Positions 2,560-30,208 are shown, numbered from the stretch's first letter. The stretch is 64,000 nt of DNA from Dehalococcoidia bacterium (GCA_965262725.1 OZ253555.1:672001-736000); one strand, 5' to 3'. Notes: generated by a model not told the origin, from the sequence alone. Numbers and translations: made by a program.

Positions 2560-3020
2560 ACGCGAGGGGAGCCCCCACGGCAGTCCGCGCTCCGGCGAGC
2601 GGCGGCGCTCCCCGACGCGGACGCGCTCGCGGAGTTACGAGAGCGCCGCGGCGCTCTGCCGGGGAGACTTCCTCGAGGGGGAGCCGTTCCCGTGGCTCGA
2701 CGCCTACCGGGCCAACTACCGCCGGCGCCTGGCCGAGGGCGCGAGCGGGGCGCGGCCGTGGCCGAACGGCTCGGGGAACCGGAGCGGGCGGCCCGCCTCT
2801 ACCAGGCGGTCCTGGATCAGGAGCCGGCGGACGAGGCGGCGGCGCGCGGGCGGATGCGCCTGCTCGCGGCGGCCGGGGACAGCACCGGCGTCCGCCGGGT
2901 CTTCAAGGCGCTGACCGAGGCGCTGCGGCGGGAGCTGGACGACCCGCGGGTCGCGCCCGCGCGGGAGACGAGGGAGTTGCTCGCCGAGCTCTGGCCGGGG
3001 AGCAGGGAGCGGGGGTGTGA
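2560..3020 (+). pseudogene. BTAD (SARP-type transcriptional activator domain) fragment, copy 1, frameshifted
   Basis: AALPDADALAE / RGDFLEGEPFPWL / LDQEPADEAAARGRMRLLAAAGD..VRRVFKALTEALRRELDD..PARETREL; homologous to 18.2-18.45 kb and 29.2-29.65 kb. Confidence 0.75.
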
Positions 3021-3574
3021 TCATGCCGCTCGCCCGGGTGCGACGCGCGGGTCGGATGGGCGGCCGCGGTGCGTGGGGCGCCTGCCCGGCGCTCGCGGGA
3101 GCGGCGCTCCTGCTGGCGGCGATCCTCGGCGTGCGCAGGCGGGAGCCGGCGGACATCGCCTGGGGCGCGGGCTTTGGCGCCTGCTTCCTGGCGCTGGCCT
3201 GGTCGGATCTCCGCAGCCGCGTGATCCCGAACCGGATCGTCTGCCCGGCGCTGGTGCTGGCGCTCGCCGCCTCCGGCGCCTGGCCCGACCGCGCCTTCGC
3301 CGAGGCGCTCACGGGCGGGCTCGGCGCGCTGGCCGCCGCGATCGCCGTCGCCGGCCTGAGCGGAGGCGGGCTCGGCGGCGGGGACGTGAAGATGGCCGCT
3401 CTTGTCGGGGCGGTCGTGGGCTACCCGGCGGTGCTGCCGGCCGGCCTCGTGACCGTGTTGGCGGGAGGCGCGACGGCCGCGGTGCTGCTCGTCACGCGGC
3501 GCGTTGGGCGGGGTGACCGCATGCCGTACGGGCCGTTCATCGCGGCCGGCGCGGTCGCAGCGCTGCTGGCCTGA
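3017..3574 (+). CDS. Prepilin peptidase, A24 family
   Basis: Multi-TM protein with both catalytic Asp motifs, SDLRSRVIPN and GLGGGDVKM, and C-terminal PYGPFI. Confidence 0.85.
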   Translation: MIMPLARVRRAGRMGGRGAWGACPALAGAALLLAAILGVRRREPADIAWGAGFGACFLALAWSDLRSRVIPNRIVCPALVLALAASGAWPDRAFAEALTGGLGALAAAIAVAGLSGGGLGGGDVKMAALVGAVVGYPAVLPAGLVTVLAGGATAAVLLVTRRVGRGDRMPYGPFIAAGAVAALLA

Positions 3575-3709
3575 TGCCGTTGGGGGGCGCCGGCGGATGG
3601 CACCGGCGACGGTGTCGGGGGTGGGCGGATCAGCGCGAGATCGTTCGAGCCCCGTTTGGTGGGCCTGGTGCGAACGCCGAGCAGCGCGGGCGTCGGCCGG
3701 CCGCCCGCC

Positions 3710-4153
3710 TCACTCCCCGAAGAAGTAGCTGGTGCCGTAGCGCTCGCCAATGGCGATGATGTCGTGGGGGCGCTCACCCAGCTCGTCGAAGAGGCCCTCG
3801 ATGCCCGCTGGGGCGAACCAGAAGATCATCTCGGCCTCGCTGTCCGAGTCGTTGCGGAAGCCGTGCCTGGTACCGCGCGGGATGTTCAGGAACGTACCGG
3901 GCCCCGCTTCGACCAGGCGGTCGTCGAGGCGGAAGGTGAGCCGTCCGCGCAGCACGAAGAAGGCCTCTTCCTCGCGACTGTGCACATGCGCGGCCGGCCC
4001 GCCACCGGGCGGCACGATCGCGTGCGTGAGGAAGTAGCTGCCGTGCGTGTGCTCGCCCCGCGCGAGCGTCGCGTAGATGTCGCCGCCGGCCGCCGTCGCC
4101 TGACCCCGACGATCCTCGGGTCGGACGATGCGAGGCTCAATCGGTTCGTTCAT
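3710..4153 (-). CDS. Cupin-domain protein
   Basis: PPGGGPAAHVHSREEEAFFVLRG..GPG..IPRG.RHGFRN; GGAGGAG RBS before the ATG at 4153. Confidence 0.85.
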   Translation of the reverse strand: MNEPIEPRIVRPEDRRGQATAAGGDIYATLARGEHTHGSYFLTHAIVPPGGGPAAHVHSREEEAFFVLRGRLTFRLDDRLVEAGPGTFLNIPRGTRHGFRNDSDSEAEMIFWFAPAGIEGLFDELGERPHDIIAIGERYGTSYFFGE

Positions 4154-4306
4154 GACTCCTCCGTCAGCGCTCTGGTGCCCCAGGACGGCGGCGCGACAGC
4201 CCTGACCCGAGACCTGTAGGCCGAAGCACGATTGTGCCAGACGTAGCGACATGCTGGCTTCCGTCGCCCGGATGGACGAGTCGATCCGCTGAGCAAAGAC
4301 TGGGCC

Positions 4307-4531
4307 CTGCCCCACCCCGTCGTGCACTTCGAGCTCGGGGGCGCCACCGGCACCGCGCTCTAGCGGTTCTACGCGGCTGCCATCGGGTGGGAGGTCAACG
4401 TCGACCACCACACAGGCATCGACGGCGGGATCGCCGCCGCGGAGCAGCAGCGGATGGTGACGATCGCGCTGTTCGCCGACCCCAGGGGCAACTTCATCGG
4501 GCTGGTCCAGCCGGAGACGCCTCCCGCGTAG
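4307..4531 (+). pseudogene. VOC/glyoxalase family remnant
   Basis: PHPVVHFELG..L*RFY..IGW..IALFADPRGNFIGLVQ; in-frame TAG at 4361 and an internal deletion. Confidence 0.7.
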
Positions 4532-8118: not shown

Positions 8119-8246
8119 CGGAGGATCTCTCCGTCCTCGGTGATGCGCTCCGACACGAGTGCCGGGTCGAGCGGATGTGCCAGCTGCTCAAGCGCGGCCC
8201 GGCTCAGGCGGCGCGATCGCGTCGCCCTGCGTCTGACTTCAGCCAT
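8115..8246 (-). pseudogene. N-terminal stub of a probable Rad52/Rad22-like annealing protein, cut by IS110
   Basis: LEQLAHPLDPALVSERITEDGEILR followed by a stop supplied by IS sequence; resembles the segment preceding Y(I/L)EG in Rad52_Rad22 proteins; overlaps the primase stop. Confidence 0.5.
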
Positions 8247-9587: not shown

Positions 9588-9738
9588 GTCGCACTCCTTC
9601 CTCGGACACTCGCTGGACACCAGCCGATCGCTTCGCGCCCGCGGGCGGACGCATCTCGCCCACGCATGGACACGACGACATCGGGGCCGCCCGAAGGCGG
9701 CCCCGAAGATGACGGCGGTGCCGGTGGCTACGAGGGGG

Positions 9739-14868: not shown

Positions 14869-14919
14869 CTGCGGGCTCCCTCCGCGCCGTCCCGGGGAGT
14901 CTACGCCCGGTCCGGGGTC

Positions 14920-15745
14920 CCGCGCGCACGAGCCGAGCTCCTCGACGCTCCCGCCCTCGTAGAGGACGAGGCTGACGCCCGAGGCGATCTCTCCGCGCAG
15001 GCAGCCCGGCCAGGACTGCGCCGCCACGCCGTCGCGCGACGGGTCGGCCGTGGCCGGTCCGTCGCTCCGGGCGATCACGAGCGCCGTGGCCGGGACGCCC
15101 TCCGCGTACAGCTCGAGGGAGGAGCGGTTCACGAATTCCGGCGCCCCGAGGATGTAGGAGACGTAGGCGCCGCCCTCGAGCTCGTAGAGCGCCGTGACGT
15201 GCCGGCTCTCGGCGCAGCCGACCAGGTCGCCGACGCTTCCCCCCTCGTAGATTGAGGATGCTGAAGCCCACCGCCACGGCGCCCCGCAGGCAGTCCGGCG
15301 CCGGCCCCGCCTCCTCGAACCCGACGTGGTAGACGCGCGTGCGGCTGCCGTCCCCCGAGGTCACCCGTCACCGTGATCTCGCGGAGGTCCTCCAGGGCAA
15401 CCTGGTGGCCCTCCGCCTCCTCGTCGGCATCGGGCGGGTCGATGTCGACGTCGCCGAGGCGATGCAGCGCCTCGGCGGTGACGGTCGTCTCGCTCACGCC
15501 GTCGTCCGCTGCGCCCTCGTAGCCGGTGGTGCCGGGGTCGAACTCCCCGATGTCGACGTCGCTCAGCGTGAGCGAGCTGAGGCGAGCAATGGCGTCGGGC
15601 ATGTTGTAGGTGTAGACGCGATCGTCGCTCTCGACGGCGACGTACATCACGTCGCCGTCGGACCAGATGCCTCGCGGGCTGTTGTTGCTGGCCTTCTTCA
15701 GTTCCCTGGACTCTCCGAACTCCTCGTCGCGGACGCGCTCCAGCT
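14920..15745 (-). pseudogene. Fragment of a surface protein (propeller repeat, cadherin-like beta-sandwich, YEGGSV/GAP..VN domains), frameshifted
   Basis: PRGIWSDGDVMYV; LSSLTLS..F.PGTT.Y..ITVTVTS.DGS.TRVY; two YEGGSV..L..CA repeats across frame changes. Confidence 0.7.
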
Positions 15746-18460
15746 CCTGTGGGAGATCGCGCGGCGCTGCTACGGCGACGGCAGCCGCTTCGTCGAGATC
15801 TTCGAGGCGAGCCGCGGCCTGCCGATGGAGGGCGGCGAACACTTCAGCGACCCGCGGGTCATCCGGCCCGGCTGGGTGCTGCGCGTGCCGCTGCCCGCGC
15901 TCAACGTGGACGCCGGGGACGACGTCACGACCTACCGCGTGCGCCGCGGCGACCACCTCTGGGGGATCGCCGAGCGCTTCCTCGGCGACGGCTTCCGCTG
16001 GATCGAGATCTGGGAGCACAACAGCGGGCGGGAGGTGGACGCGGGCTCCCGGCTCACCGACCCGAACCAGATCCACCCGGGATGGCTGCTGGAGCTGCCG
16101 CTGCGGGACGGCGAGGCGGCGCTGCGGGCAGAGGCCCGGGCCCCGGCGGCACCCCCCGCGCCTCTCCCGGTGGAGAGCGCGGTCCGGCCGGCCTTCGCGG
16201 ACGCCATGGCTGGTGCTGCCACCCGCGCCGGCACCGTGGCCGCCGGGGACGCCGATGCAGACGCCGGCGTTGCGGATGGCGGTGGTGGCTGGGACTGGGA
16301 ATGGCCGCAGGTGCCGCGAACGGTCACCTGGAGCGCGGCGGGCTTCGCGGTGATCGGCGGCACGGCCATCTTCGTGCAGCGGCTGCACCGCGGAGGCCGG
16401 CTGCGGTTCCGCCCCGGCGGGGGCCGCGGCGGGGACGGTCCGGGCGACGCCGGGCGCGTGGCGCTCGCCACCGGTGCGCTCGGGACGGCGCTCGCGGACC
16501 TTGGCTTCGCTGGCTCGATGCCGCTGCTCGTGCTCGAAGGGGGCTCGGTGCTCGAGTTCACGGTGGCGTGCCCGCCCGGTGACGCCGGCGCCCTCCTCGC
16601 GGCGCGCCATGACCTCGAGCGCCGCCTCGGCTGCGATGTCGAGGCCGCGGCGCACGGCCCCACGCGCGTCGCACTGACGCTGGGTGCGTCCGGGCGGCCT
16701 CCGGGCGGGCTCGGCGAGGCACCGTACGCCTCGCCGGCGCTCGTGGTGCCGGTCGGCGCGACCGACGCGGGCGTCGTCTACCTCAACCTCGCGGCCGCGG
16801 GCAGCGTGACCGTGACCGGCCCGGCCGGGGAGCGGCGGGCACGGCTGCGCTCGTGGGTCGCGACGCTCCAGACGACCTGTAGCCCGGACCAGCTCTCATT
16901 CCGCGTGGACTCCGCCGCCGCCGGGCTGCTCGATGCGGATGAGGGTCTCCTCTACTTCGGCGACGCGGCCGGCGCCCATGGCGCCGCGGACCTGGCGGAC
17001 GAACTGGATGAGATCATCCAGAGCCGGAACTCGGGTCATGGGATGAGCCGGCCGCTCGTCGCCGTCTTCGATCTGACCGGAAGCGGCGACGATGTGCCGG
17101 CCGGAGCGATGCGCCACGGGCCGGCGGCCGGGTCATCGTGATCCGCTGCCTGCCGCCGGGCGAATCCGCGGATCCGCTCACGGACTCCGGAGGGCTGGTC
17201 GCCTTCCGCGGGGCGGGAGACGGAGCGGACGGAGACGCGGACGCAGTCCCGCCCGGTGCGATCGTCCTGAGGATCGGCCGGGACGGGCCGCTGCTGCTCG
17301 AGCGGTGCACGTGCGGCGGGACACGTCGGCCAGGTGGAGCGAGAGCGCGGACCCGGCCGCGCTGACAGACGTGCTCGACCGGATGGCCGGGGATCTGCCA
17401 CCTCCACGGGAGGCGGACGTGAGCACCTCGGCCGACGGACGACCACGGACCGGCGCCGCTCGCGAGGGCGATGCCGAAGGTGTGGGCGCCGCCCTCGCGC
17501 ACCCGGTGATGCCCCGCGACCCGCTCGCCGCGTTCGCGGCGGACGACGGCGTCGGGGACCAGGACGCGGCCTGTGCACCCGTCCAGCCGGACGGCGAGGC
17601 CGAGCCGGATCCTCCCGGGCCCGTGGAGCCTGCGGTCGGGCACGATACCGGGTGCGAGGACGGGTGCGCGTGGCCAGCCGTCCCCGCGGAGCAGGCTGAA
17701 GAGGATGTCTCGCCGCAGGCCGGTGAGGCGCCCGACGAAGCGATCCTCTCCGGCGAAGCCCTGCGGGCCGAGGGCCCGGTGACGCCGCCGGAGCCGCAAC
17801 CGGTGGCGGCGCCGGGCGGTGTCAGCCAGCCCGCGGCCGCGATCCGCCAGTCGGCGCTGCTCACGCACGACGGCCTCCCCGCGGCGGCGGTGGATGCCCC
17901 GACCGCCGCGCAGGCGGTCTTCACGGTGCGGTCTTCGAGCTGCAGCTCGGAACCACGACCGTCGCGGGCTGGCCCATAGCGAAGTCCCGCGAACTGCTGG
18001 CGTTCCTCGCCACGCATGGCGGAACGCCCGTGCCACGCGAGTTCGTCGCCGAGGCGCTGTGGCCGGACCTACCCCTGGGATGCGAGCCTCCGGCACACCA
18101 TCGCGAATGCCGTGAGCAGCCTGCGGGGAGTCGTGCGGTCCGCGGCAGGCAGCGATGAACTTGCAGCCGGTGGTCACCGCCCGCCAGCGATACCAGCTCC
18201 AGACCGCTCTCTTCCGCATCGACCTCGACGAATTCGAGTCCGCGCTCAGGCGCGCGGCCGTGCTCCCCGATGTGGACGCGCTTGCCGAGTACGAGCGCGC
18301 CGCGGCGCTCTGCCGGGGAGACTTGATCGAGGGAGAGCCGTTCCCGTGGCTCGACGCCTGCCGGGCCGACTACCGCCGGCGAGCGGCCGAAGGGGCGAGC
18401 CGCGGCGCGGTGATCGCCGCACGGCTCGGGGAGCGGGAGCGGGCTGCGCTTCTCTACGGG
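15746..18460 (+). pseudogene. LysM-LysM-TM-linker-wHTH/BTAD membrane-anchored SARP-like regulator (5'-truncated, several frameshifts), copy 2
   Basis: Two LysM domains (LWEIA..YGDG; YRVRRGDHLWGIAERFLGDG..IHPGW.L.LP), TM WSAAGFAVIGGTAIFV, then KSRELLAFLA..EALWP and IDLDEFE..BTAD. Confidence 0.75.
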
Positions 18461-19512
18461 GGAGGCATGGGAGGCGCAGCGGGAGGCGGGCGAGGGAGGA
18501 ACTCCCGAATCCGCCGACCGCTAGTTCGTTCTATGCGCTCGCTTCCCAACGGATCATGTCCGCCTCGTGGGGGCGTGGCGACCGGCGGAGGAACGGTCCC
18601 CTGAGGAACGCGGGTGACCAGCATGCCCGCTCCGCACTGATCGCGAATGACGCCGGGCACGACCTGTGGCGCCCGTGGGGCGCGGTCGAGCGGGTCGCCC
18701 ACGGGGTCACCAACCGCAGGGCGTGGTGATGGGCTCGCGAGCGTCGGACGCCTCCACCGCGTGATCCTCACGCACGAGCCGACCGGCGAGGCGGCGGCGC
18801 GCGGGCTGGTGTGCCAGCTCGAGGCTACGGGGCGGGGCACGGCGACGACCTTCACCGGGCCGGCGCGCCGAAACGGGATCGCTGAGCGCAATCCTAGCGA
18901 ATAGGCTGCGATCAGCCCCGAGCATAGCTTCTTCCTGAGAATCGTTACCGAACTGCCACTAGAAGGGGGCCGATTGTCCACTGAACGTTCATAGCTAGTT
19001 GGTACGCTGCCATGAATGGACCCCGTGCTCCGGGAGGCATTGACGTGGCGCTCGACAGACCAGTCCATGCACCTGAGATGGTGGGCGGAACGACGGCCCG
19101 TGCCGTCGCTCTGGGGTCTCCTGTGCAGGGCGACCTAGCACATACCCCCCTCCCCCCACTTCTGTATCGCCCATGCTTCATCGCGCTTCCTCCTGCATCC
19201 CGTCCCGCCGGGCCGTGCTTCGACGCGGCTCGTGCCGCTTGCGATCGTCGCCGGCCTCACGGGCCGTTCGCGGCGGTGGGCGCGGGCAACGCCGACCGGG
19301 CGGAACACCCCGCGGGTTCTCACTGACCACTCGCCCCCTGCGCCCGCACGGTCCGGTGCCGGCACCGAGGGAGCACGCGTGACCATGCGGGAACGGCCAC
19401 CGGTCGGCTACGCGGTCCCTGACTCACGGGCAGCACCGTCGCACGTCCCGGTCGGGGCGATGCCGACAGCGCGCCGTGCCACTTGGCACGTCGGTGGGGG
19501 AATGGCGGACCG

Positions 19513-22179
19513 GTGAACAGACGCGATCTCTGGTGGCTCGGTCTCGCGGTCGTCGCCGGCCTGGCGGTGGGGATGGTCATCCGCCAGACGTACGAGCCGT
19601 TCGCGGCGGTGGCGTCCCATCTGGACGCCGCCGGGACACTGCCCCCGATCGTGGCTCAGGGTACGACGTCTTCGGCGATTCGGGCCGCGGAGCGGGCGCT
19701 GTGCGTGAGCGGCTCGGCGGTGGGCGCGGGCAACGAGGGTCTGCTCGACGACTGCGCGGTGCTGCTTCAGGCGAGGGACACGCTGCGCGGCACGGCGACG
19801 CTCAACTGGAGCGCCGACACCGCGATCGCGGACTGGACTGGCATCGCCCTATCCGGGACGCCGCAGCGCGTGACGGAACTGACGCCGACGTACGCCGGTC
19901 TCAACGGCAGCATCCCGCCCGTGTTGGGCAGTCTCCCCGGGCTGGAGGACCTGCAACTCTCCAACAATGCGCTGACGGGCTCGATTCCCGCGGAGCTGGG
20001 CTCGCTGAGTGAGCTGGACATCCTCTACCTCCACAACAACCAGCTTGAGGGCGCGATTCCCGCGGAGCTGGGGAACCTCGCGAAGCTGCGATTCCTGGGC
20101 CTGCGCAACAACCAGCTCACGGGCACGATCCCGGCCGCGTTCGCCAGCCTGTGGGAACTGCAGGACCTCTACCTCAACAACAACCAGCTCACGGGCGCGA
20201 TTCCGGCCCTGCTGGGCGACCTCGACCTGCGCATCCTCTACGTGGCGGGCAACAGCGGGCTCACGGGCTGCATCCCTGCGGCGCTGAGCAGCGTCACCTT
20301 CAGCGACCTCGCGACGCTGAGCCTGGAGGATTGTGAGGCGGAGCCCACGCACACGCTGACGACATCGAGGACCGGCATCGGCAGCATCTCTCCGGCGCCG
20401 GGCGCGCACAGCCACCGCAGCGGGGCGCTCGTGCGCGTGGAGGTGACTCCGGGAGACGGGTATCGCGTGGCGTCGTGGGGCGGCGACTGCAGCGGAAACG
20501 GCCGGGCGACGGAGTGCATCCTCACGCTGGACGCCGCCAGGACGGCGAGCGTGACCTTTGAGGCGGGAGAGCCCATCGCGACGTACACGCTGACGACGTC
20601 GGCGGGGTCGAACGGGAGCATCTCGCCCGCAGCGGGCACGCACATCTACGACGAAGACACGAGCGTGACGGTGACGGCGGCGCCGGGGGAAGGCTACCGC
20701 GTGGGGGCCTGGGGCGGCGACTGCAGCGGCGCGGCCCTGACCTGCGTGCTGACGATGGACGCGGACAAGACGGCGAGCGTGACCTTCGAGCGGACGGCGC
20801 ACACGCTCACGACCTCGGCGGGAGCGAACGGGAGCATCTCGCCCGCGGCGGGCTCGCACAGCTACGACGAGGACACGAGCGTCACCATCACGGCGACGCC
20901 GGATGAGGGCTACGGCGTCGACTCGTGGGGTGGCGACTGCAGCGGCACGGCCCTGACGTGCGTGCTGACGATGGACGCGGACAAGGCCGCGCGCGTCGTG
21001 TTCGCGCCGTCGGGTGCGGTCTGCACAACCGCCACGGACGCGACCTGCGTCCGGGCCGTCTACACCGGCGCGCCGGGCGACTACAGCTCCATCGCGGACA
21101 TCCCCGCGGACGCGCTCATCACGCCGGACGCGGCCGGCCGCTACCACGTGGAGCGGGGCGAGCAGGTGACGGTCATCACGGCCGCCACGGTGCCCACGGG
21201 CTACACGCGCTTCTACCTGCAGTGGCGGCCTGAGGGGACCCCCCCGCCGACCTCGTTCACGCGGCTGATCCCCCCCGTGGGGACGACGTACACGTTCACG
21301 CCGACGGAGGACGAGGCCGGGTCGACGCTGATCACGTTCGACCTGACGGCGGCGCGGCCGCGGCCGCTCTCAATCGGCGACAAGCCCGAGCTGGGGGACG
21401 TGGTGGCGACGACCGTCTTCCAGGTGGTCTCGTGTGGGTCGGGTGTCGCCGTGCCTGCTCCGACGACGAACGGGGAACTGGTCGGGGACTGCGAACAACT
21501 CTTGGCGCTCCGGGACACGCTGGAGGGCGCGGCAGCGCTGAACTGGAGCGCGAGGAGGGCCATGACGAGTTGGGCCGGCGTGACGATGTCGGGCACGCCC
21601 CGGCACGTGACGGAGCTGGAGCTGGCGAACAGCGGGTTGACGGGCGAGCTAACGGGCCTGCTGGGCACGCTCACGGCGCTGACGGAGCTGCGGCTCGATG
21701 GGAACGCCCTCACGGGCATGGTCCCGTCGAAGCTTGGCCAGTTGGCGGACCTGACGCATGTCTACCTGGCCGGGAACAACCTGACGGGCTGCGTGCCGAC
21801 GTCGCTGAGGGCGGTGGCGAACAACGACATCCCCCTGTTGAACTTGGCAGACTGCGGCGCGCCGGCCGACGTTTCCGACCGAACGCGAGGGGATCCGCTC
21901 CCGGTCGGCACCTACCAGTTCGACTTTTCCTCTCAGCACGGACCTCTTGTGTTCGACATCCCACCTGGTGCCAGCGTGGAGTTGGATTACTTGGTCGTCA
22001 GCGAGCCACAGGAAGGGACTGGCGATTCCACTGAGGGTCTCCTTCTGCAAGACGAAGCCACAAAATCTTGGGTCTGTCTCGATCTAGTACGGGCCATCGA
22101 ATGTAATCGATGGGTGAGCGGTCAGAGTGTAGACGTGACCTTTGACCGTATCATCGAATCGCTCTGGGTAGCTGAGTAG
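19513..22179 (+). CDS. Secreted/anchored LRR plus InlB B-repeat surface protein
   Basis: N-terminal TM; plant-type LRRs (LxLxNNxLTGxIPxxLG); three ~72-aa repeats (LTTSAG.NGSISP..WGGDCSG..C.LTMD..KTASVTF); second LRR block. Confidence 0.9.
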   Translation: MNRRDLWWLGLAVVAGLAVGMVIRQTYEPFAAVASHLDAAGTLPPIVAQGTTSSAIRAAERALCVSGSAVGAGNEGLLDDCAVLLQARDTLRGTATLNWSADTAIADWTGIALSGTPQRVTELTPTYAGLNGSIPPVLGSLPGLEDLQLSNNALTGSIPAELGSLSELDILYLHNNQLEGAIPAELGNLAKLRFLGLRNNQLTGTIPAAFASLWELQDLYLNNNQLTGAIPALLGDLDLRILYVAGNSGLTGCIPAALSSVTFSDLATLSLEDCEAEPTHTLTTSRTGIGSISPAPGAHSHRSGALVRVEVTPGDGYRVASWGGDCSGNGRATECILTLDAARTASVTFEAGEPIATYTLTTSAGSNGSISPAAGTHIYDEDTSVTVTAAPGEGYRVGAWGGDCSGAALTCVLTMDADKTASVTFERTAHTLTTSAGANGSISPAAGSHSYDEDTSVTITATPDEGYGVDSWGGDCSGTALTCVLTMDADKAARVVFAPSGAVCTTATDATCVRAVYTGAPGDYSSIADIPADALITPDAAGRYHVERGEQVTVITAATVPTGYTRFYLQWRPEGTPPPTSFTRLIPPVGTTYTFTPTEDEAGSTLITFDLTAARPRPLSIGDKPELGDVVATTVFQVVSCGSGVAVPAPTTNGELVGDCEQLLALRDTLEGAAALNWSARRAMTSWAGVTMSGTPRHVTELELANSGLTGELTGLLGTLTALTELRLDGNALTGMVPSKLGQLADLTHVYLAGNNLTGCVPTSLRAVANNDIPLLNLADCGAPADVSDRTRGDPLPVGTYQFDFSSQHGPLVFDIPPGASVELDYLVVSEPQEGTGDSTEGLLLQDEATKSWVCLDLVRAIECNRWVSGQSVDVTFDRIIESLWVAE

Positions 22180-22185
22180 CGCGCG

Positions 22186-22821
22186 GTGATGGTACTTCAG
22201 CATGCCCCCAAGCCGATCGTAAAGGTTATCGCCACACTGCTTCTTGCTTTGGCCTCCACCGGGTTGTCACTCTTCCTACCCGTCGTAGTTTCCCCGGAGC
22301 TCTCCCAGATGGCGTTTGCGGATATCGACACTACAGCCGCAAACGTGCTGTGGGCTAACGTAAGTCGAGAGACGATCGAGGGTGAGAGCGTTACTGTTTG
22401 CTCCGACACGCATCGGAACGCCGCGCAGGACGCAGTACAGATGTGGAACAGCGGCCTGCGGGACAAGGGCTTCGTGGAATTCGACGTGTTCACCTTCGCC
22501 GACACGTGCCCCAGTGTCGCCGCCGAGTCAACGGTCAGTGTCGATCACATACTCGTACGGGGTTTGCCCGAGACTGACCCGGACTTCCGATGTCCCACAT
22601 ACTCGGATGGCACTGGCGCTACTGGTTGTGCGCTGTTGGTGGCTCAGAGAGGTGTCCAGAACAATTTTGTTGGGATTCTCGAACTGCGATTGAATACTGA
22701 CAAGAGACCCGTCGCGCACGAGAATCCGTCGCATCCAGGCTACACCGTGGCGGGGTTTGAGGCCAATCGACGCACGGTAGCCCACGAGTTGGGTCATGCA
22801 CTCGGCATGGATCACCCTAGC
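22186..22821 (+). pseudogene. Secreted zinc metallopeptidase (matrixin-like), broken after the active site
   Basis: Signal peptide; HELGHALGMDH metzincin motif; out-of-frame junction to InlB repeats at 22822. Confidence 0.75.
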
Positions 22822-23333
22822 GCAGCGGCACGTCCCGGACGAGCAGCACGTGCACGCTCACGATGAGCGGTAACCGCAGCGCGAGCGTCAGCTTCATCCG
22901 GCAGTACAGGCTGACGACATCGGCGGGAGCGAACGGGAGCATCTCCCCTGCGACGGGCAGCCACGACAGCGGCGCGTCCGTGACTGTGAGGGCGACGCCG
23001 ACGAACGCCAACTACGCCATCAGTTCGTGGGGCGGGAACTGCAGCGGCACGTCCCGGACGAGCAGCACGTGCACGCTCACGATGAGCGGTAACCGCAGCG
23101 CGAGCGTCAGCTTCATCCGGCAGTACAGGCTGACGACATCGGCGGGAGCGAACGGGAGCATCTCCCCTGCGACGGGCAGCCACGACAGCGGCGCGTCCGT
23201 GACTGTGAGGGCGACGCCGACGAACGCCAACTACGCCATCAGTTCGTGGGGCGGGAACTGCAGCGGCACGTCCCGGACGAGCAGCACGTGCACGCTCACG
23301 ATGAGCGGTAACCGCAGCGCGAGCGTCAGCTTC
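22822..23333 (+). repeat. Exact 219-bp tandem repeat (~2.3 copies) encoding InlB B-repeats
   Basis: GCAGCGGCACGTCCCGGACG recurs at 22822, 23041 and 23260. Confidence 0.9.
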
Positions 23334-23645
23334 GCGAGGGTGCCGGTCACGTACACGCTGAGCACGTCGGTGAGGCCGTCGGGAATCGGGTCGATCAGCG
23401 TCAGCCCGGCGGGGCCGTACAGTCCGGGGACAAGCGTGAGCGCGTCGGCCACATCGAACTATCCGGACTATCGGTTCTCCCACTGGGTGGGTCCGGGATC
23501 GGGCGTCTCGCCGCGGACCATCACGATGAACGGGCACTATAGCCTGACGGCCGTCTTCGTGCCGATCACCGAGTGCACGCCGGGCGTGGACTGCCGCCGG
23601 AGCGACGACGGCGAGGGCGAGGAGGGGAGCACGCCCGCGCCGTAG
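22863..23645 (+). pseudogene. InlB B-repeat C-terminal part of the peptidase-linked surface protein
   Basis: Repeated LTTSAGANGSISP..WGGNCSG..CTLTMSGNRSASVSF; no signal peptide of its own. Confidence 0.7.
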
Positions 23646-23702
23646 CGACGCCGCTGGGGCGACAATCGCTTCGGGCAGGCCGATGCGCCCGTGGGCCTCT
23701 AG

Positions 23703-25095
23703 CAGGGTTGTGATTTTCTCCCTGGGTGCCCGGAGCATGGCCGGCGGTGCCCCGCGGGTGCAACAAACGCCCCCGGTAGCTGTCAGAAGCCCCAGGTAGT
23801 GGTCGACTGTAACTGATAAGACGAGTACACTAACGATCATACAAGAGGGACCCCCACGAGGGAGGATATCGATGCGAGGACAGAGCGAGGACCAGGGCCG
23901 CGCCACTCTCACCTACCCGGAGATGTTCGTCCCCAGCGACCACCCGCTCCGACGCATCAAGCCCATCGTCGACCGGGCGCTCGCCAATCTCTCCCCGCGC
24001 TTCGACGGTCTCTACAGCGAGTCCGGGCGACCGTCGATTCCGCCCGAGACGCTGCTCAAGTCGACACTCCTCATCGCCTTCTTCTCGATTCGTAGCGAGA
24101 GCCAGTTCTGCGAGCGGCTGCGGTCCGACATGGCGTTCAAGTGGTTCCTCGACCTCCCGGGAGACCCCGGTTCCTTCGACCGCTCCACGTTCTCGAAGAA
24201 CCGCTCCCGGCTCCTTGACGGCGACATCGCCCGGGGGTTCTTCGAGGAAGTCGTGAGGGAGGCGAGGGAGCGGAACCTGCTGTCCGAGGAGCACTTCACG
24301 GTCGACGGGTCGCAGCTCGAGGCGTGGGCGTCGCACAAGAGCTACCGGTCACGCGACGAGCAGGACGGGGACAAGCCTGCGGGCCGCAATCCGGACGTCG
24401 ACTTCCGCGGCGAGCGCCGGCACCGGGACACCCACGTCAGCACGACCGATCCCGGCGCGCACCTGTACCGGAAGGGGAACGGGCAGGCGGCGCGCCCGAG
24501 CTACATCGGGCATGTGATGACGGAGAACCGCAACGGGCTCATCGTCGATGTCGAGCTCACGACGGCGCACGGGCGGGCGGAGCGGGATGCGGCGCTGGCC
24601 ATGGCCGAGCGCAGCCTGACACCGGGGGCGACGCTGGGCGCCGACAAGGGATACGACGCGAAGCACTTCGTGGAGGGGCTGTGCGAACTCGGGGTCGTGC
24701 CGCACGTGGCACGGCGAGCGAAGCACAGCGCCATCCCCGAGGAGGTGGCGCAGACGCCCGGCTACGAGGTGAGTCAGCGCCGGCGCAAGATGGTGGAGGA
24801 GAGCTTCGGGTGGCTGAAGACCGTGGGGGGCGGGCGCAAGCTCCGCTACATCGGCGAACAGGTCAACGGTTTCTGGATGGAGATGGGCGCTGCCGCGTAC
24901 AACCTGGTGCGCGTGGCCAATATCGACGCCGCGCTGTCACGGGCGTAGTGCGCCCGGAGTAGGTCCCGGGGCGCCCGGACGGGGTGAGAGAGCCCCGGAG
25001 GGGGCCAGAATCGGCCCCGAAATGACGCCGCATACGCCCTCTTGGCGGTGATTCGCTCCGTGGCCGCGCCAAAGGGGGCCTTTTTCCCGACCCTG
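23703..25095 (+). mobile_element. IS5 family element
   Basis: Imperfect IRs CAGGGTTGTGA / TCCCGACCCTG flanked by CTAG on both sides (23699-23702 and 25096-25099). Confidence 0.85.
23872..24948 (+). CDS. IS5 family DDE transposase
   Basis: HPLRRI, GRPSIPPE, VDGS, STTDP.A, GADKGYD, R..VEESFGW.K. Confidence 0.95.
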   Translation: MRGQSEDQGRATLTYPEMFVPSDHPLRRIKPIVDRALANLSPRFDGLYSESGRPSIPPETLLKSTLLIAFFSIRSESQFCERLRSDMAFKWFLDLPGDPGSFDRSTFSKNRSRLLDGDIARGFFEEVVREARERNLLSEEHFTVDGSQLEAWASHKSYRSRDEQDGDKPAGRNPDVDFRGERRHRDTHVSTTDPGAHLYRKGNGQAARPSYIGHVMTENRNGLIVDVELTTAHGRAERDAALAMAERSLTPGATLGADKGYDAKHFVEGLCELGVVPHVARRAKHSAIPEEVAQTPGYEVSQRRRKMVEESFGWLKTVGGGRKLRYIGEQVNGFWMEMGAAAYNLVRVANIDAALSRA

Positions 25096-25260
25096 CTAGG
25101 CGGCGATCAGCGCCAGCCCGGAGTGCACCTGCGCTCTCGCACGTCGGCGATGTCGTGTGTTGGGGGGAAACGCGGTACGGGAAGGAGTTGTTGATTCTCC
25201 CGTAAGCGGGGCGAAGGCCGCTCGCATATTCGGGCCGAGAGCTGAGCAGAAGGCGGATTC

Positions 25261-25614
25261 ATGGAGATCGACTTTGGCGTATGGAACGCCGTGGCGGCGG
25301 ACGGCCGGCCTTATCCTGACCCCCTCACGCTGGCCGAGCAGCGCGTGCTGGAGGAACTGCGCAAGGGTGGAACGAACGGCGAGATCGCTGAGCGACTGGG
25401 GCTCGCCCCGGAGACGGTCCAGACTCACGTTGCGAGAATGCTCTCGAAGCTCGATCTCGACACCCGCCGACAGCTCACCGCGTGGCAACCCGAGCGACCC
25501 GGAGTCCGAAGACGGGTGCGCTCCCTGCTCGCGCCGCTGGCGTTCTGGATGCCCGGGTCTACAGTCAGCCAATACTTGGGGCGGCGTTGCCGCGTCGCGG
25601 GAGAAGTGCGATGA
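25261..25614 (+). CDS. LuxR C-terminal HTH regulator
   Basis: LT.AEQRVL..L.KG.TN.EIAERLG...ETV.THV..ML.KL; ATGA overlap with the next gene. Confidence 0.85.
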   Translation: MEIDFGVWNAVAADGRPYPDPLTLAEQRVLEELRKGGTNGEIAERLGLAPETVQTHVARMLSKLDLDTRRQLTAWQPERPGVRRRVRSLLAPLAFWMPGSTVSQYLGRRCRVAGEVR

Positions 25615-26849
25615 GAGTACGGCATCGAGGTCTCGGGGTTGCGGCTCTGGTGCTGACGCTGGTCGTGGGGGCTGCCTGTGGGTCGGCTACCCCTCAGCCG
25701 TCGCCGGTAGGCACGGCTCCACTGGCACCTGCCGCTCTGTCTAGCCCCAGCGCCGAGCCCACGGCGACTGCCGAGCCCACGGCGACCGCCGAGCCCACGG
25801 CGACTGCCGAGCCCACGGCGACCGCGACACCCACGGCGACTGCCGAGCCCACGGCGACCGCGACACCCACGGCGACCGCCGAGCCCACGGCGACCGCGAC
25901 ACCCACGGCGACTGCGGAGCCCACGGCGACTGCGGAGCCCACGGCGACCGCGACACCCACGGCGACTGCGGAGCCCACGGCGACTGCGGAGCCCACGGCG
26001 ACTGCGGAGCCCACGGCGACTGCGACACCCACTCCGACCACACCTGTCCAGGTTGCGTCGTGCGCGTCAGGGATCGCGGTCCCGAATCCGACCACGAACG
26101 AGCAACTCGTGGGGGAATGCGCCCATCTGCTAGCGCTCAGGGACACACTCGCGGGAACAAGGACGCTCAACTGGAGCACCACGAGGGATATGGCAAGCTG
26201 GACCGGCGTGACGGTGGAGGGGACGCCCCGACGGGTGGTGAAACTGGATCTGGCGAATAGCGGGTTGACGGGCGAACTCTCGGGCCTGCTGGGCACGCTC
26301 ACCTCGCTAACGGAACTGCGGCTGGACGGGAACGCCCTCACGGGCCGGATCCCGTCGAAGGTCATCAGGTTGACGCGCCTGACGGATGCCTACCTGGCCA
26401 GCAACAACCTGACTGGCTGTGTGCCGCCGTCGCTCCGGCTAGTGGGGAACAACGACATGCCCTCCCTCGGCCTGGGGGACTGCGACGCACCAACAGACGT
26501 CTCCGACCGAACTCGAGGGGATCCGCTCCCGGTCGGCACCTATCAATACAAGGCGTCATCGCGGCACGTGCCTCTTGTATTCGATATCCCGCCCGGAGCC
26601 AGCATGGCGTTGGATGACCTTGTGGCCACCGAGCCAGAGGAAGGGACCGGATACTCCACTCAGGGTCTCCTTCTGCAAGACGAAGCCACACAATCCTGGC
26701 TGTGCCTCGACCTACTCCGCGCAATCGAATGCAATCGGTGGGTGCTGCAGACGGGTCAGGGTCCGGCGTTATCGGGCGAGCCTAGTCTCGATGTGATCTT
26801 TGACCGCATCGTCGAATCCCTATGGTTGGCCGAGCGGAGCGAAGGGTGA
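25611..26849 (+). CDS. Lipoprotein with Pro/Thr/Ala stalk and LRR domain (paralog of the C-terminal part of 19513-22179)
   Basis: Lipobox VGAAC; PTATAE repeats; LDLANSGLTGELSGLLG..LDGNALTG; shared C-domain ending FDRI.ESLW. Confidence 0.85.
   Translation: MRVRHRGLGVAALVLTLVVGAACGSATPQPSPVGTAPLAPAALSSPSAEPTATAEPTATAEPTATAEPTATATPTATAEPTATATPTATAEPTATATPTATAEPTATAEPTATATPTATAEPTATAEPTATAEPTATATPTPTTPVQVASCASGIAVPNPTTNEQLVGECAHLLALRDTLAGTRTLNWSTTRDMASWTGVTVEGTPRRVVKLDLANSGLTGELSGLLGTLTSLTELRLDGNALTGRIPSKVIRLTRLTDAYLASNNLTGCVPPSLRLVGNNDMPSLGLGDCDAPTDVSDRTRGDPLPVGTYQYKASSRHVPLVFDIPPGASMALDDLVATEPEEGTGYSTQGLLLQDEATQSWLCLDLLRAIECNRWVLQTGQGPALSGEPSLDVIFDRIVESLWLAERSEG
25752..26030 (+). repeat. 18-bp coding minisatellite (PTATAE/PTATAT)
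   Basis: About 15 units of CCCACGGCGAC(T/C)GC(C/G)(GAG/ACA). Confidence 0.9.
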
Positions 26850-26896
26850 CGCTACGAGATGGCTCCAGCGCAGATCGCAGGATGCATCACCGGTGG

Positions 26897-27300
26897 TACG
26901 ACAGCGGTGCGTCGGTGACGGTAACGGCGAGGCCGAACGCCAACTAGGCCATCGCCTCCTGGGGCGGGAACTGCAGCGGCACGTCCTCCACGAGCAGCAC
27001 GTGCACGCTCACGATGAGCGGTAACCGCAGCGCGAGCGTCGGCTTCGCGCGGGTGCCGGTCACGTACACGCTGAGCACGTCGGTGAGGCCGTCGGGAATC
27101 GGGTCGATCAGCGTCAGCCCGGCGGGGCCGTACGGTCCGGGGACAAGCGTGAGCGCATCGGCCACATCGAACTATCCGGACTATCGATTCTCCCACTGGG
27201 TGGGTCCGGGATCGGGCGTCTCGCCGCGGACCATCACGATGAACGGGCACTACAGTCTGACGGCCGTCTTCGTGCCGATCACCGAGTGCACGCCGGGCGT
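26897..27300 (+). pseudogene. Second copy of the InlB-repeat C-terminus (near-identical to ~23185-23590)
   Basis: Near-identical DNA; in-frame TAG near 26945 (AAC TAG GCC versus AAC TAC GCC). Confidence 0.8.
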
Positions 27301-27805
27301 GGAGCAGGTGGAGCTGCCCCCGGAGCGGCGGCGGCGGGTCGTGGTGCTGGTCGACGAGTCGAGCACGCTCGCGGCGGTCGACTACAGCCGGATGCTCTCC
27401 GAGCCTGGGAAGTAGGGAGCGAGCTTCGTGCTGGTCACGCAGGGCCTGGCGAAGCTCGATGCCGTCGACCGGTCGCTGGCGCCGACGATCTTCTCGAACA
27501 TCGACGGCCTCACCGTCTTCCAGGTCAGCGCCGAGGACGCCCGCCGGCTGGCGCCGGAACTCGGGGGCGACCTCGAGGTCGAGGACTTGACCGGCCTCGA
27601 CGATTTCGCGTGCTACGCGCGTTGGTGGGACGGCGCCGCGCGGCCGGCCGCGTTCTCGTTCCGCGTGGACCCGCCGGCCGCGGTGGCGGCGGAGCGGGTG
27701 CGCGCGGTGGCGGGACGCTCGGCGCTGCGCTTCGGCCGGCCGCGAGAGACCGTCGCAGCCGAGGTCGCGCTCGCTCTTGAGGCCACGGGCTCGCCCGCGC
27801 CGTGA
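27301..27805 (+). pseudogene. C-terminal fragment of a VirD4-like coupling protein
   Basis: VLVDESSTL..DY.RMLSE.GK*GASFVLVTQ matches 43.7-44.2 kb; in-frame TAG at 27413. Confidence 0.85.
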
Positions 27806-28052
27806 GGGGCCGAGAGCGGTCGGGCGCGGCCGGACCGCTCCGGCCCGTGGGCGGCAGAGTGGACCGGGCGGTTTGGCCGTGGCCTCAATGCTGAAGGGGG
27901 ACAGGTCCCGGAGCAGATCAGGTAGTCGACCGGAAGCTCGAAGCGCTCTCGAGCCAGACCAGTCGGCTGATGGAGGAACACCAGGACTTGTGTGCGGGCG
28001 GAGGTGGTCGGGCAGGTTCTGCCTCGTCCGGCCACATCCACGAGCGAATCGC

Positions 28053-28370
28053 TCAGAGCCGCCACGCGGGCGACTCGCCGTCGTTGAGGGCGACGAGCGC
28101 GTCGCGCACGGGCTCAGGGAGGCTCTCCCAGGGCGGCAGTGTGTAGCCGTCGAACTCGGCGACGGGCACCCACTCCTCCGGCGCGACCTCCTTCTCGATC
28201 GCTTCGATCCCGTAGTTGTGCAGCCCCCAGATCTGGGTACGGCAGCGGTAGGGGCCAGCCGCCTCGATGGCGGCGGCGACCTCGTCGGTGAAGTTGGGTC
28301 CGTCCCCGTCGTCGAAGCCGAACTTCGAGAACGCGTCGGTGATCTCCCAGCAGATGATCCGTCGTGGCAT
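28053..28370 (-). CDS. Small acidic hypothetical protein
   Basis: GAGGGAG RBS; W..TDAFSKFGFDDGDG..WGLHN; 105 aa. Confidence 0.7.
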   Translation of the reverse strand: MPRRIICWEITDAFSKFGFDDGDGPNFTDEVAAAIEAAGPYRCRTQIWGLHNYGIEAIEKEVAPEEWVPVAEFDGYTLPPWESLPEPVRDALVALNDGESPAWRL

Positions 28371-28394
28371 CAGGTTCTCCCTCTCTCGGTGCTG

Positions 28395-29654
28395 CAGAGG
28401 TGCTCGGCCGGATGGCCGGGGATCCTCCGCCTCCCCGGGAGGCGGAGGCGCGCACCCCGGCCGGCGGACGGCCGCGGACCGGCGACGATCGCGGGGGCGA
28501 TGCCGCCGGTGTGGGCGCCACCCTCGCGCACCCGGTCGTGCCCCCGGTCGTGCCCCACGACCCGCCCGGGTTCGCAGCACGCGGCGGCGGCGGGCGAGAC
28601 GCCGTGTCCTCTGCGCCCGTCCGACCGGGCGGCGAGCCGGATCTGGATCTGGATCCGGATCTGCCCGAGCCCGTGCCCGCGGCCCCGCAGGATGCCGGGT
28701 GCGAGGACGGTCGGGTGCGGTCGGCGGCCCCCCCGGAGCCGCCCGGCGGGGCGGCCGCGGGCGCGATCCTCTCCGGCGGATCCCCGCAGGCACACGGCCC
28801 GGCGCCGGCGATCCGCCAGTCGGCGCTGCTCACTCACACCGACCTCTCCCCGGCGGCGGCGGATGGCCCGCCCGCCGCGCAGGCGGTCTTCACGGTGCGG
28901 TGCCTCGGCCCCTTCGAGCTGCGGCTCGGAGCCACCCCCGTCGCGAGCTGGCCCGTCACGAAGTCCCGCGAGCTGCTGGCGTTCCTCGCCACGCAGGGCG
29001 GAAGGCCCGTGCCGCGCGAGTCCGTCGCCGAGGCGCTGTGGCCGGACTACCTCTGGGACGCGAGCCTCCGGCACACGATCGCGAATGCCGTGAGCAGCCT
29101 GCGGGGAGTCGTGCGGTCCGCGGCAGGCAGCGATGAACTTGCAGCCGGTGGTCACCGCCCGCCAGCGATACCAGCTCCAGACCGCCCTCTTCCGCATCGA
29201 CCTCGACGAATTCGAGTCCGCGCTCAGGCGCGCGGCCGTGCTCCCCGATGTGGACGCGCTTGCCGAGTACGAGCGCGCCGCGGCGCTCTGCCGGGGAGAC
29301 TTCCTCGAGGGGGAGCCGTTCCCGTGGCTCGACGCCTACCGGGCCGACTACCGCCGGCGAGTGTCCGACGGGGCGAGCCGCGGCGCAGCGGTCGCCGAAC
29401 GGCTCGGGGAGCGGGAGCGGGCGTCGCTCCTCTACCGGGTGGTCCTGGAGCAGGAGCCGACCGACGAGGCGGCCGCGCGGGGACTGATGCGCCATCTCGC
29501 GGCGGCCCGGGACGCCAACGGGGTCCGCAAGGTCTTCAAGGTGCTGTCCGAGGCGTTGAAACGGGAGCTGGACGACCCGCAGGCGGCGCCCGGGCAGGAG
29601 ACGCGGGAGCTGCTCGCCGCGCTCCTGGCCCGGGAGCCGGGAGCGGTGGTGTGA
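28395..29654 (+). pseudogene. wHTH-BTAD regulator C-terminal half, copy 3 (frame change at ~29137)
   Basis: VRCLGPFEL..KSRELLAFLA..VAEALWP..SSLR, then LQPVVTARQRYQL..BTAD in another frame. Confidence 0.8.
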
Positions 29655-30208
29655 CGGGGCGCATCGCCGGCGTGCGCCCCGCTTGGCTGGTGAGGGACCG
29701 GGAGCCGCGGGCAGCGTACCCGGCGCTCGCGGGAGCGGCTCTCGTGGTCGGGGCGATCCTCGCGCTGCGCGGGCGGGAGCCGGCGGAGATCGTCCTGGGT
29801 TCGGGCTTCGGTGTCTGCTTCCTGGCGCTGGCCTGGTCGGACCTCCGGCGCCGCGTCATCCCGAACCGGCTCGTCTACCCGGCGCTGGTCCTGGCGATCG
29901 CCGTCTCCGGCGCCTGGCCCGACCGCGGGGTGGTCGAGGCGCTCACGGGCGGGCTCGGCGCGCTTGTCGTCGCGATCGCCATCCGCGGACTGAGCGGGGG
30001 CGGCCTCGGCGGCGGGGACGTGAAGATGGTTGCGCTTGTTGGGGCGGTCGTGGGCTACCCGGGCGTGCTGTCGGCCGGATTCTGGGCCGCGCTCGCGGGA
30101 GGCGTGACGGCCGCGGCGCTGCTGGTCACGCGGCGAGCCGGCCGCGGTGACCGCGTGCCCTACGGGCCGTGCATCGCGCTCGGCGCGGTTGCGGCGCTGC
30201 TGGGCTGA
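29651..30208 (+). CDS. Prepilin peptidase, A24 family (copy 2)
   Basis: SDLRRRVIPN, GLGGGDVKM, PYGP; GTGA overlap with the BTAD gene. Confidence 0.85.
   Translation: MTGRIAGVRPAWLVRDREPRAAYPALAGAALVVGAILALRGREPAEIVLGSGFGVCFLALAWSDLRRRVIPNRLVYPALVLAIAVSGAWPDRGVVEALTGGLGALVVAIAIRGLSGGGLGGGDVKMVALVGAVVGYPGVLSAGFWAALAGGVTAAALLVTRRAGRGDRVPYGPCIALGAVAALLG

Follow-up and report, generated by a model that had tools for sequence, protein, structure and literature searches.

Decayed LysM-SARP genes and adjacent prepilin peptidase genes of a Dehalococcoidia genome as probable remnants of Tad pilus operons

If a gene for an A24 prepilin peptidase abuts one for a putative regulator, and no pilin is encoded nearby, what does the peptidase cleave? 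This question is raised by a 64,000-nucleotide stretch of the genome of a Dehalococcoidia bacterium (GCA_965262725.1 OZ253555.1:672001-736000; hereafter the window, whose own numbering is used unless genome or locus coordinates are named). The window holds three decayed copies of a gene that combines LysM domains and a transmembrane (TM) helix with the winged helix-turn-helix (wHTH) plus BTAD module of SARP-type activators, and two of the copies are followed by an A24 gene. The original prediction regarded the intact product as a membrane-spanning activator that senses cell-wall glycan and, seeing no Tad or type IV pilin, supposed that A24 might release it.

Comparison with the remainder of the genome points to a different answer for the peptidase. 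The three copies are very probably the pseudogenised 3′ ends of Tad (Flp) pilus operons borne on a multi-copy conjugative element, and A24 appears to lack a pilin substrate because the Tad genes were lost through decay in the window. The window feature itself is a set of ordinary pseudogene fragments, and it offers a caution: a seemingly orphan peptidase-regulator pair was the surviving tail of a larger operon. The LysM-SARP family to which the fragments belong is a real, conserved accessory of mobile Tad operons and is essentially unstudied.

Decayed copies in the window

Because the G+C content of the window is 64-76%, similarity was preferred over lists of open reading frames (ORFs) for calling genes. 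Comparison of the window's DNA with itself identified three related, decayed copies, at 2582-3576, at 15746-18461 (with a remnant at 18749-18825) and at 28394-30340. The first matches the third with 84% identity over 998 bp (2582-3576 and 29215-30210), the second matches the third with 79% identity (17361-18461 and 28391-29439), and the first matches the second with 85% identity (2582-2802 and 18237-18457). Pfam recognized a LysM domain in the frame 15333-17138 of copy 2 (E 3.9e-6), a full BTAD domain in 29094-29651 of copy 3 (E 7.2e-7) and a partial BTAD domain, under the Pfam cut-off, in the frame 2551-3513 (E 7.8e-4). The BTAD sequence at 18.2 kb was not reported by Pfam at E<=1e-3 on ORFs of >=100 residues and was recovered by the family hidden Markov model (HMM) at 18137-18472 (E 2.5e-41); the same Pfam procedure was also blind to the BTAD domains of two plasmid proteins discussed below (Streptomyces and Microbacterium), both of which the family HMMs recovered. 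The predicted BTAD sequences at 2.6, 18.2 (with its remnant) and 29.2 kb were thus borne out, coordinates included. The features are as follows:

2582..3020, + strand: copy 1, the 3′ end of the LysM-SARP gene with BTAD sequence only, 83-84% identical in DNA to the intact paralogues from 2582 onwards
3017..3574, + strand: A24 (TadV-type) ORF of copy 1, intact, 185 residues (PF01478, E 6.9e-14, in the frame 2915-3571)
15746..18461, + strand: copy 2, a LysM-SARP pseudogene without its first ~197 codons, with 88% DNA identity to the intact genes at genome positions 2517271-2520026 and 1659275-1662000
15747-15890: first LysM domain of copy 2 (partial)
15933-16100: second LysM domain of copy 2
about 16320-16376: TM helix of copy 2
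16434-17353: FtsK-like domain of copy 2, followed by a linker
17919-18171: wHTH of copy 2
18137-18461: BTAD of copy 2
18749..18825, + strand: BTAD 3′ remnant, 77% identical to 2794-2870 in the self-comparison (HMM E 7.4e-6)
28394..29654, + strand: copy 3, the 3′ third of the LysM-SARP gene (linker, wHTH at 28874-29149, BTAD at 29115-29651)
29651..30208, + strand: A24 (TadV-type) ORF of copy 3, intact, 185 residues (Pfam E 2.1e-14, domain at ~29813-30110)
14900..15746, unstranded: multi-copy repeat adjoining the 5′ breakpoint of copy 2, with ~20-40 genome copies by whole-genome blastn coverage
28000..28394, unstranded: multi-copy repeat adjoining the 5′ breakpoint of copy 3, with 5-9 copies that are 90-96% identical

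All three copies are truncated at the 5′ end and frameshifted. Relative to an intact protein of ~1190 residues, copy 2 starts at about residue 198, copy 3 within the linker and copy 1 inside BTAD, where it covers positions 112-249 of the 257 in the wHTH_BTAD HMM (E 6.7e-30). There are about three frame changes in copy 1 (near 2640, 2740 and 2985); a single one in copy 3, an inserted T at 29139 that parts wHTH from BTAD; and five in copy 2, among them the loss of 10 nt near 17945 and the gain of single nucleotides near 18087 and 18161. The proposal that copy 2 links two LysM domains, a TM helix and BTAD is therefore right about the parts, all of which are present, but not about a continuous link, since the frame changes intervene. 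Copy 2 is also truncated at its 3′ end (18461) and has no A24 gene. About 288 bp of unrelated, unique sequence separate it from the BTAD remnant, which is 81% identical to genome positions 2087332-2087401. In copies 1 and 3 the expected coupling of BTAD to A24 takes the form of a GTG start codon that overlaps the upstream stop as GTGA (3017-3020 and 29651-29654).

A search of the window for other parts of a Tad operon (tblastn, E<1e-4; phmmer and HMMs, E<=1e-2) detected only the LysM-SARP and A24 pieces, and neither Tad assembly genes nor any remnant of the large protein's N-terminal module. Judged by these lesions the copies would be non-functional, with the possible exception of the two orphan A24 genes. 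Homology to the intact genes begins at 15746 in copy 2 and at 28394 in copy 3, each time directly after one of the repeats (blastn against the genome). Rearrangements at the ends of repeated elements deleted the Tad genes together with the 5′ portions of the large gene, and the sequence left behind was broken by small indels. The ~850-bp repeat at 14900-15746, which neighbours a minus-strand ORF of 461 residues without a Pfam match (13978-15360), may be an unclassified mobile element.

One frame break is common to two copies. At the wHTH/BTAD junction the intact genes read GAC GAG CTG CAG CCG, and copies 2 and 3 read GAT GAA CTT GCA GCC G. Over a tract of ~200 bp at this junction, copies 2 and 3 are 98-100% identical to each other and 88-98% identical to the intact paralogues, such that the inserted T looks to lie in a tract with the pattern of gene conversion.

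If the frame breaks were errors of assembly, the window copies would really be intact genes, and the very high G+C content, a single-contig genome with an estimated completeness of only 91.6%, and database relatives (P0002, P0003, P0004) that look frameshifted too could all be cited for this. We nevertheless regard it as highly improbable: the same assembly contains four paralogues that run unbroken for 1150-1320 codons, and base-calling error could not produce the large 5′ truncations at repeat boundaries seen in all three copies. Moreover, the inserted T is present without a gap, at ~2x the baseline depth, in contigs from an independent re-assembly of runs X2 and X3, and runs X1 and X6, from two other studies, have the intact form at the junction. 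Since X2 and X3 possibly represent the source sample, they exclude an assembler artefact rather than lend independent support to the frameshift.

The same junction could also be taken for a programmed +1 frameshift site (CTT-G, Leu CUU slipping to UUG), from which copy 3 would yield a soluble linker-wHTH-BTAD regulator. A +1 slip at CUU_G restores the residues of the intact protein exactly (...SDELQPVV...), and just 5′ of the site there is a cluster of three synonymous changes, each to a rare codon that ends in A or T. Yet copies 2 and 3 have no 5′ end, start or promoter of their own, gene conversion accounts for the identity of the tract, the T is absent from the intact paralogues and from other organisms, and no Shine-Dalgarno-like stimulator was seen on inspection of the sequence; among the explanations that we considered, this is the least probable.

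Intact Tad operons, their peptidase and the conjugative element

The genome that contains the window (one contig of 3.67 Mb) encodes four unbroken LysM-SARP genes, with open frames of 1185, 1196, 1322 and 1152 residues. Each lies directly 5′ of one of the genome's eight A24 matches, and 5-6 kb upstream of each is a T2SSE match, of which the genome has only four. At locus L023, Pfam gives the order RcpC/CpaB-TadZ-TadA-TadB-TadC-Flp-TadE-TadE-TadG-like-orf327-LysM/Trans_reg_C/BTAD protein (1316 residues)-A24, and tblastn recovered the same order at L024-L026. The assignments at L023 include a TadA/CpaF secretion ATPase (PF00437, E 4.6e-48), TadB and TadC (PF00482 twice), a ParA/CbiA-type TadZ, RcpC/CpaB (PF16976 and SAF), Flp (PF04964, E 7.4e-9), two TadE proteins (PF07811) and a TadG-like protein (PF13400). 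The leader of the Flp prepilin is of the classical kind (...ERG|AAMVEYAIV...), its mature part has 42 residues, and all four intact loci encode a Flp prepilin of the G/XXXXEY type. The gene that precedes the LysM-SARP gene in all Chloroflexota loci, orf327, is conserved and encodes 327 residues (L023:10881-11864), with a hydrophobic segment at the N-terminus and collagen-like repeats of GTPG; neither Pfam nor NCBIfam assigns it to a family, and NCBIfam likewise has no curated family for the large protein, the divergent SARP described below or the A24 copies.

Tad/Flp (type IVc) pilus operons with a TadV/CpaA prepilin peptidase are known from the tad locus of Aggregatibacter and the cpa locus of Caulobacter. 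The operons described here resemble these in their RcpC/CpaB, TadZ and TadA-C proteins, G/XXXXEY Flp, TadE-type pseudopilins, TadG-like protein and short two-Asp A24 peptidase, and differ in having the additional orf327 and LysM-FtsK-like-SARP genes and a conjugation module alongside. Secretin or other outer-membrane parts were not seen in the operons, where no search was aimed at such parts; Tad loci without secretins occur in 1,234 of 3,780 Chloroflexota genomes according to the available part of a published survey (PMC12488501).

The premise that no Tad or type IV pilin accounts for A24 does not survive these comparisons. The four intact loci are complete Tad/Flp operons, and in other genomes TadA is encoded upstream and on the same strand in 29 of the 29 family loci with >=7 kb of upstream sequence. 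The A24 proteins of the window score 52.6 and 54.3 bits against PF01478 (curated cut-off, 26.5); D64 and D123 are invariant in all nine aligned A24 sequences, both window copies included, and D123 lies in GGGDVK, which we take to be the GxGD-type motif that holds the second catalytic Asp of A24 peptidases. The A24 of copy 3 is 96% identical to that of L023. From what is known of its family, A24 is best read as the TadV of the operon, an ordinary prepilin peptidase, which would cleave the leaders of Flp (G|AAMVEY...) and of the TadE and TadG pseudopilins.

Could the peptidase instead, or in addition, cleave the membrane activator and so free its SARP module? The overlap of the LysM-SARP stop with the A24 start is compatible with such a pairing, as is the recurrence of A24 adjacency in distant lineages (4/4 in this genome, L033, L035, L037, L048 and a Microbacterium plasmid), and the N-terminus of the large protein, with a basic stretch, a conserved Gly and a hydrophobic helix, is loosely like a class III signal. 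However, that N-terminus has no E at +5 and no EY motif, a cut there would leave the C-terminal SARP module tethered beyond further TM helices, and canonical substrates are encoded in every intact operon. Nor is adjacency obligate. Of 31 external family loci, at least 4 have A24 as the next gene 3′ of the LysM-SARP gene (L033, L035 and L037 by phmmer, L048 by Pfam), a lower bound because the single-query phmmer search missed the adjacent gene of L048. It was absent from this position in the other 27, including five checked by Pfam (90 of 148 ORFs in 6 of 10 loci scanned), and the only A24 match in the L030 genome is ~160 kb from the locus. We consider release of the activator by A24 very unlikely.

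The attribution of the fragments to a conjugative element draws on the sequence around copy 3:

27298..27748, + strand: C-terminal piece of a conjugative coupling protein, interrupted by a stop, 78% identical to 43711-44161, in 9-12 copies
33946..46081, + strand: conjugation module of the element that carries copy 3, 95.3% identical (blastn) to the module downstream of the L023 Tad operon
35253-36491, + strand: TrbL/VirB6 (Pfam), followed by a type IV secretion system pilin and PrgI
38834-40807, + strand: VirB4 (Pfam)
40207-41868, + strand: primase (Pfam)
41780-44407, + strand: coupling protein (Pfam)
43851-46322, + strand: relaxase (Pfam)
46539..47750, + strand: tyrosine integrase at the end of the element (Phage_integrase, E 9.7e-28)

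VirB4, the coupling protein, the relaxase and the integrase all fall in one block (35253-47750), confirming that a conjugative element is present. Because the module is 95.3% identical to that of L023 over 33946-46081, and because 28802-30340 is 97.1% identical (blastn) to the last 1.5 kb of the intact L023 operon, the region from 28.4 to 47.7 kb is, by sequence identity, a sister of the intact L023 Tad-plus-conjugation element (95-97% identical). It has lost about 14 kb; the Tad genes are gone, as are two-thirds of the LysM-SARP gene. Some seven related conjugation modules plus fragments occur in this 3.67-Mb genome, an unusually high load for one family of integrative and conjugative elements (ICEs).

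The LysM-SARP protein and its possible roles

The intact protein begins with TM helices, followed by two LysM domains, another TM helix, an FtsK-like pseudo-ATPase domain, a Pro/Ala-rich linker and, at the C-terminus, the SARP module. The expectation that LysM, TM helix and SARP are joined in one polypeptide holds for the four intact paralogues (1152-1322 residues). The FtsK-like domain, ~300 residues between the TM helix and the linker, had gone unremarked. With the copy 2 ORF as query, 28 database proteins were retrieved; in 10 of the 14 that were scanned, LysM and BTAD share a single chain of 933-1020 residues, and one close relative reads uninterrupted through the wHTH/BTAD junction. Searches with the central domain yielded 45 cluster representatives at E<=1e-30, a number that rises to 68 when the threshold is relaxed to E<=1e-10. 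Among 39 such proteins that were scanned, nine were EccC-like with multiple FtsK domains, and 26 of the other 30 have LysM together with BTAD, so that the two are not separate genes.

The central domain is modelled with confidence (pLDDT 81, pTM 0.86, from 12 sequences). Its best Foldseek matches are the FtsK motor (2ius, E 3.2e-9) and, with weaker E-values, TcpA and EccC/EssC, at TM-scores of 0.38-0.50, and FtsK_SpoIIIE (PF01580) exceeds its Pfam cut-off at the central position in 8 of 30 non-EccC members. On the strength of the model, the domain is of the FtsK/HerA-type P-loop fold. It differs from the FtsK/SpoIIIE ATPases that share this fold (FtsK motor, TcpA, EccC/EssC) in being a single domain where EccC has three, and in the absence of the lysine motif of Walker A: GxxGxGK[ST] is absent from 17 of 17 family members and present in both of two EccC-like controls. 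The SARP module matches EmbR (E 4.8e-15) and AfsR (E 5e-10) end to end (profile positions 5-252 of 257), and Pfam scores in members reach E 5.5e-17 for BTAD and E 9e-7 for Trans_reg_C. Hydropathy indicates two or three N-terminal TM helices and one after LysM, and hence a membrane-anchored protein, unlike the soluble SARPs. This suggests a topology, in agreement with the positive-inside rule, in which the N-terminus is inside, LysM outside and everything after the last TM helix inside. The linker (21% Pro, 21% Ala, 16% Gly) is the most variable part of the gene in the alignment of paralogues and differs in length among them. The 1316-residue L023 paralogue has a Pro/Ala/Gly-rich expansion of tandem units there (alignment A2, columns ~1000-1160) that the other three lack.

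In order to place the family in its genomic context, we fetched 79 loci from species-representative genomes, of which 45 belong to the family by the HMMs. The hosts are Chloroflexota (Anaerolineae, Dehalococcoidia, Thermoflexaceae, Chloroflexia) and Actinomycetota (Promicromonospora, Streptomyces, Modestobacter, Acidimicrobiales, Nocardioides and others). The proteobacterial loci match LysM only and have none of the Tad context. A canonical Flp prepilin (G/XXXXEY, 42-residue mature part) occurs in 10 of 10 Chloroflexota loci, and Pfam identified two TadE proteins and a TadG-like protein in each of four Actinomycetota loci (73 of 90 ORFs and 4 of 5 loci scanned). A tblastn search of plasmids with P0093 matched 53 records, none at >=80% query coverage because only the LysM part aligns at such distance. 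In the three matches inspected (Chlorohelix, Microbacterium and Streptomyces plasmids), the LysM protein is encoded directly 3′ of TadE/TadG genes, and in the Microbacterium plasmid an A24 gene follows directly. By the HMMs, two of the three proteins are full members and the Chlorohelix protein has only the N-terminal module and LysM in common with the family; the central-domain HMM had no match in any of the three. Together these loci show the LysM-SARP protein as the fixed terminal gene of one class of Tad operon in two phyla.

Decay of the LysM-SARP gene may be common, as several close relatives in other assemblies likewise show apparent truncations or frameshifts: the frame is lost at the end of P0002, beyond its FtsK-like domain, and over the SARP part of P0004, and a stretch of LysM in P0003 is out of frame. 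In one Thermoflexaceae metagenome-assembled genome, a set of genes like those of a cyclic-oligonucleotide-based antiphage signalling system (SMODS, a SAVED-TIR effector and a ThiF-family protein; L030:13092-17786, - strand) lies directly downstream of the locus.

In the literature searched, no paper analysing a LysM-BTAD protein in Tad loci was found, within the parts of each source available; the sole trace is a table row for a Cutibacterium acnes plasmid. In the Tad locus of pIMPLE-HL096PA1, PAGK_2369 follows RcpC-TadZ-TadA-TadB/C-TadE x3, has the Pfam entry 'LysM, BTAD' and is labelled 'TadB', without further analysis in the part of the article available (PMC3666418, Table 2). It has the same operon position and domain pair as the proteins described here, a likeness that comes from the published description and not from sequence; PAGK_2369 was not among the best 30 of the 53 plasmid records matched.

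What might such a protein do? Its N-terminus would be cytoplasmic, and its pair of LysM domains would bind peptidoglycan on the outer side of the membrane; the following TM helix would return the chain to the cytoplasm, where an FtsK-fold domain, its Walker A dead, would probably serve for oligomerisation or docking, and the long, flexible Pro/Ala/Gly linker would then carry the SARP-type wHTH and BTAD. The reading that we tentatively prefer, at somewhat short of even odds, is a membrane-tethered, ToxR-like SARP activator of the tad promoters, the transfer promoters or both, whose activity would depend on contact with the cell wall or on the state of the pilus machine. From the domain content, sensing of cell-wall glycan by the LysM ectodomain, as originally predicted, is plausible. 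The known SARPs EmbR (2fez) and AfsR (8hvr, 8jke, 8k60) have the same wHTH-BTAD module and are soluble, EmbR adding FHA and AfsR adding NB-ARC and tetratricopeptide repeats (TPRs); here the module belongs to a protein that crosses the membrane several times and has LysM domains outside the cytoplasm as well as a pseudo-ATPase of FtsK fold. If envelope contact were indeed relayed to transcription, this would be a membrane-bound SARP, of which we found no description.

Alternatively, the protein might be mainly a structural part of a secretin-less Tad machine in monoderm-type envelopes, with LysM holding the machine to peptidoglycan, the pseudo-ATPase docking on TadA/TadZ, the TPR-like BTAD end recruiting partners as in FimV/HubP, and the wHTH vestigial or secondary. 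Such a scaffold would fit the constant position of the gene, which in two phyla closes the run of pilus-assembly genes (29/29, and on plasmids), and the occurrence of Tad systems without secretins in Chloroflexota (PMC12488501, the part available). A separate, divergent SARP gene could then take care of regulation. According to the accessible portion of a description of FimV/HubP (PMC12918733), those proteins have the same layout of periplasmic LysM, TM helix, long low-complexity cytoplasmic region and TPR-type C-terminus, and serve a type IV filament machine. The likeness is one of layout; FimV has neither wHTH nor an FtsK-like domain, and its linker is acidic, not rich in Pro, Ala and Gly. 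Against a mainly structural role, the SARP DNA-binding unit is kept complete, end to end, relative to EmbR and AfsR, and Trans_reg_C is detectable in many members, such that selection appears to keep the DNA-binding fold. We judge the scaffold somewhat doubtful as the main role. It is mutually compatible with the activator reading, which is favoured with the scaffold as a close second. The anchoring and regulation of Tad machines in monoderm-type envelopes are poorly known.

A broader version of the activator reading, which we consider unlikely, would make the protein a one-component activator of a new, membrane-tethered kind that is confined to the mobile Tad pili of monoderm-type bacteria. 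Its LysM ectodomain and pseudo-ATPase would register contact with the cell wall or the state of the pilus machine, and it would switch on the downstream conjugation genes; the Tad pilus would then serve the ICEs and plasmids of Chloroflexota and Actinomycetota as an organelle for mating or contact. This would tie pilus contact to DNA transfer in bacteria without conjugative pili. The conjugative plasmid R64 has a thin pilus of type IV class (type IVb) with its own prepilin peptidase beside the transfer genes, in a diderm host; here, by contrast, the pilus is of Tad type in Chloroflexota and Actinomycetota, with a mating role that is only proposed. In the window's genome, the four Tad operons are upstream of, and co-oriented with, a conjugation module (at about 5, 10, 35 and 96 kb), and conjugation genes also follow the locus in L033, L037, L035 (as fragments) and the actinobacterial L048 and L084.

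Several observations weigh against parts of the account given here. Two of the four intact operons are as far as 35 and 96 kb from the nearest co-oriented module, and conjugation genes were not found within 10 kb in L027, L030 and L032; association with conjugation is thus common without being the rule everywhere. In Actinomycetota only TadE/TadG were seen and the major Flp pilin went undetected, with the strict Flp motif in only 1 of 22 such loci and Flp_Fap (Pfam) in none of four. The SARP-type tandem heptamer boxes that might mark a target are not convincingly conserved in the tad promoter region. Finally, a second, apparently soluble SARP-like gene, upstream of and divergent from each Tad operon, could be the real activator, which would weaken the case for a regulatory role of the membrane protein.

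That gene lies at L023:2488-3798 (- strand; BTAD E 2.4e-8) and has counterparts at L024-L026, L033, L034 and L037; other wHTH-BTAD genes occur in or beside conjugation modules (genome 1077681-1078511, 37133-37657 and 40103-40507). Within the divergent Tad promoter region, two GTGAACC units 11 nt apart are present in L023 alone, and an inverted repeat, ACCGTTCCAA ... TTGGAACGGT, with arms about 190-240 nt apart, is conserved at three loci (L023, where it lies at about 3390 and 3590, L025 and L026).

The rest of the window

Between copies 2 and 3 are large surface-type proteins with leucine-rich repeats and InlB B-repeats (Flg_new_2), at 19423-22176, 22821-23642, 25392-26846 and 26948-27412, which contain internal and mutual repeats; among them lie a DDE transposase (23800-24945) and an ORF with a LuxR-type HTH (25246-25611). 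The stretches 52433-59400 and 61160-64000 together contain insertion sequences (two IS21-type pairs, each of an IstA-like protein with a Mu-transposase C domain plus IstB, and two IS1595-type transposases) along with group II intron reverse-transcriptase genes or fragments, and the window is therefore a dense graveyard of mobile elements. Just after the integrase of the copy 3 element, 48068-52129 encodes 1354 residues, in which an N-terminal MqsA-like/HTH_31 domain is the only one that could be assigned.

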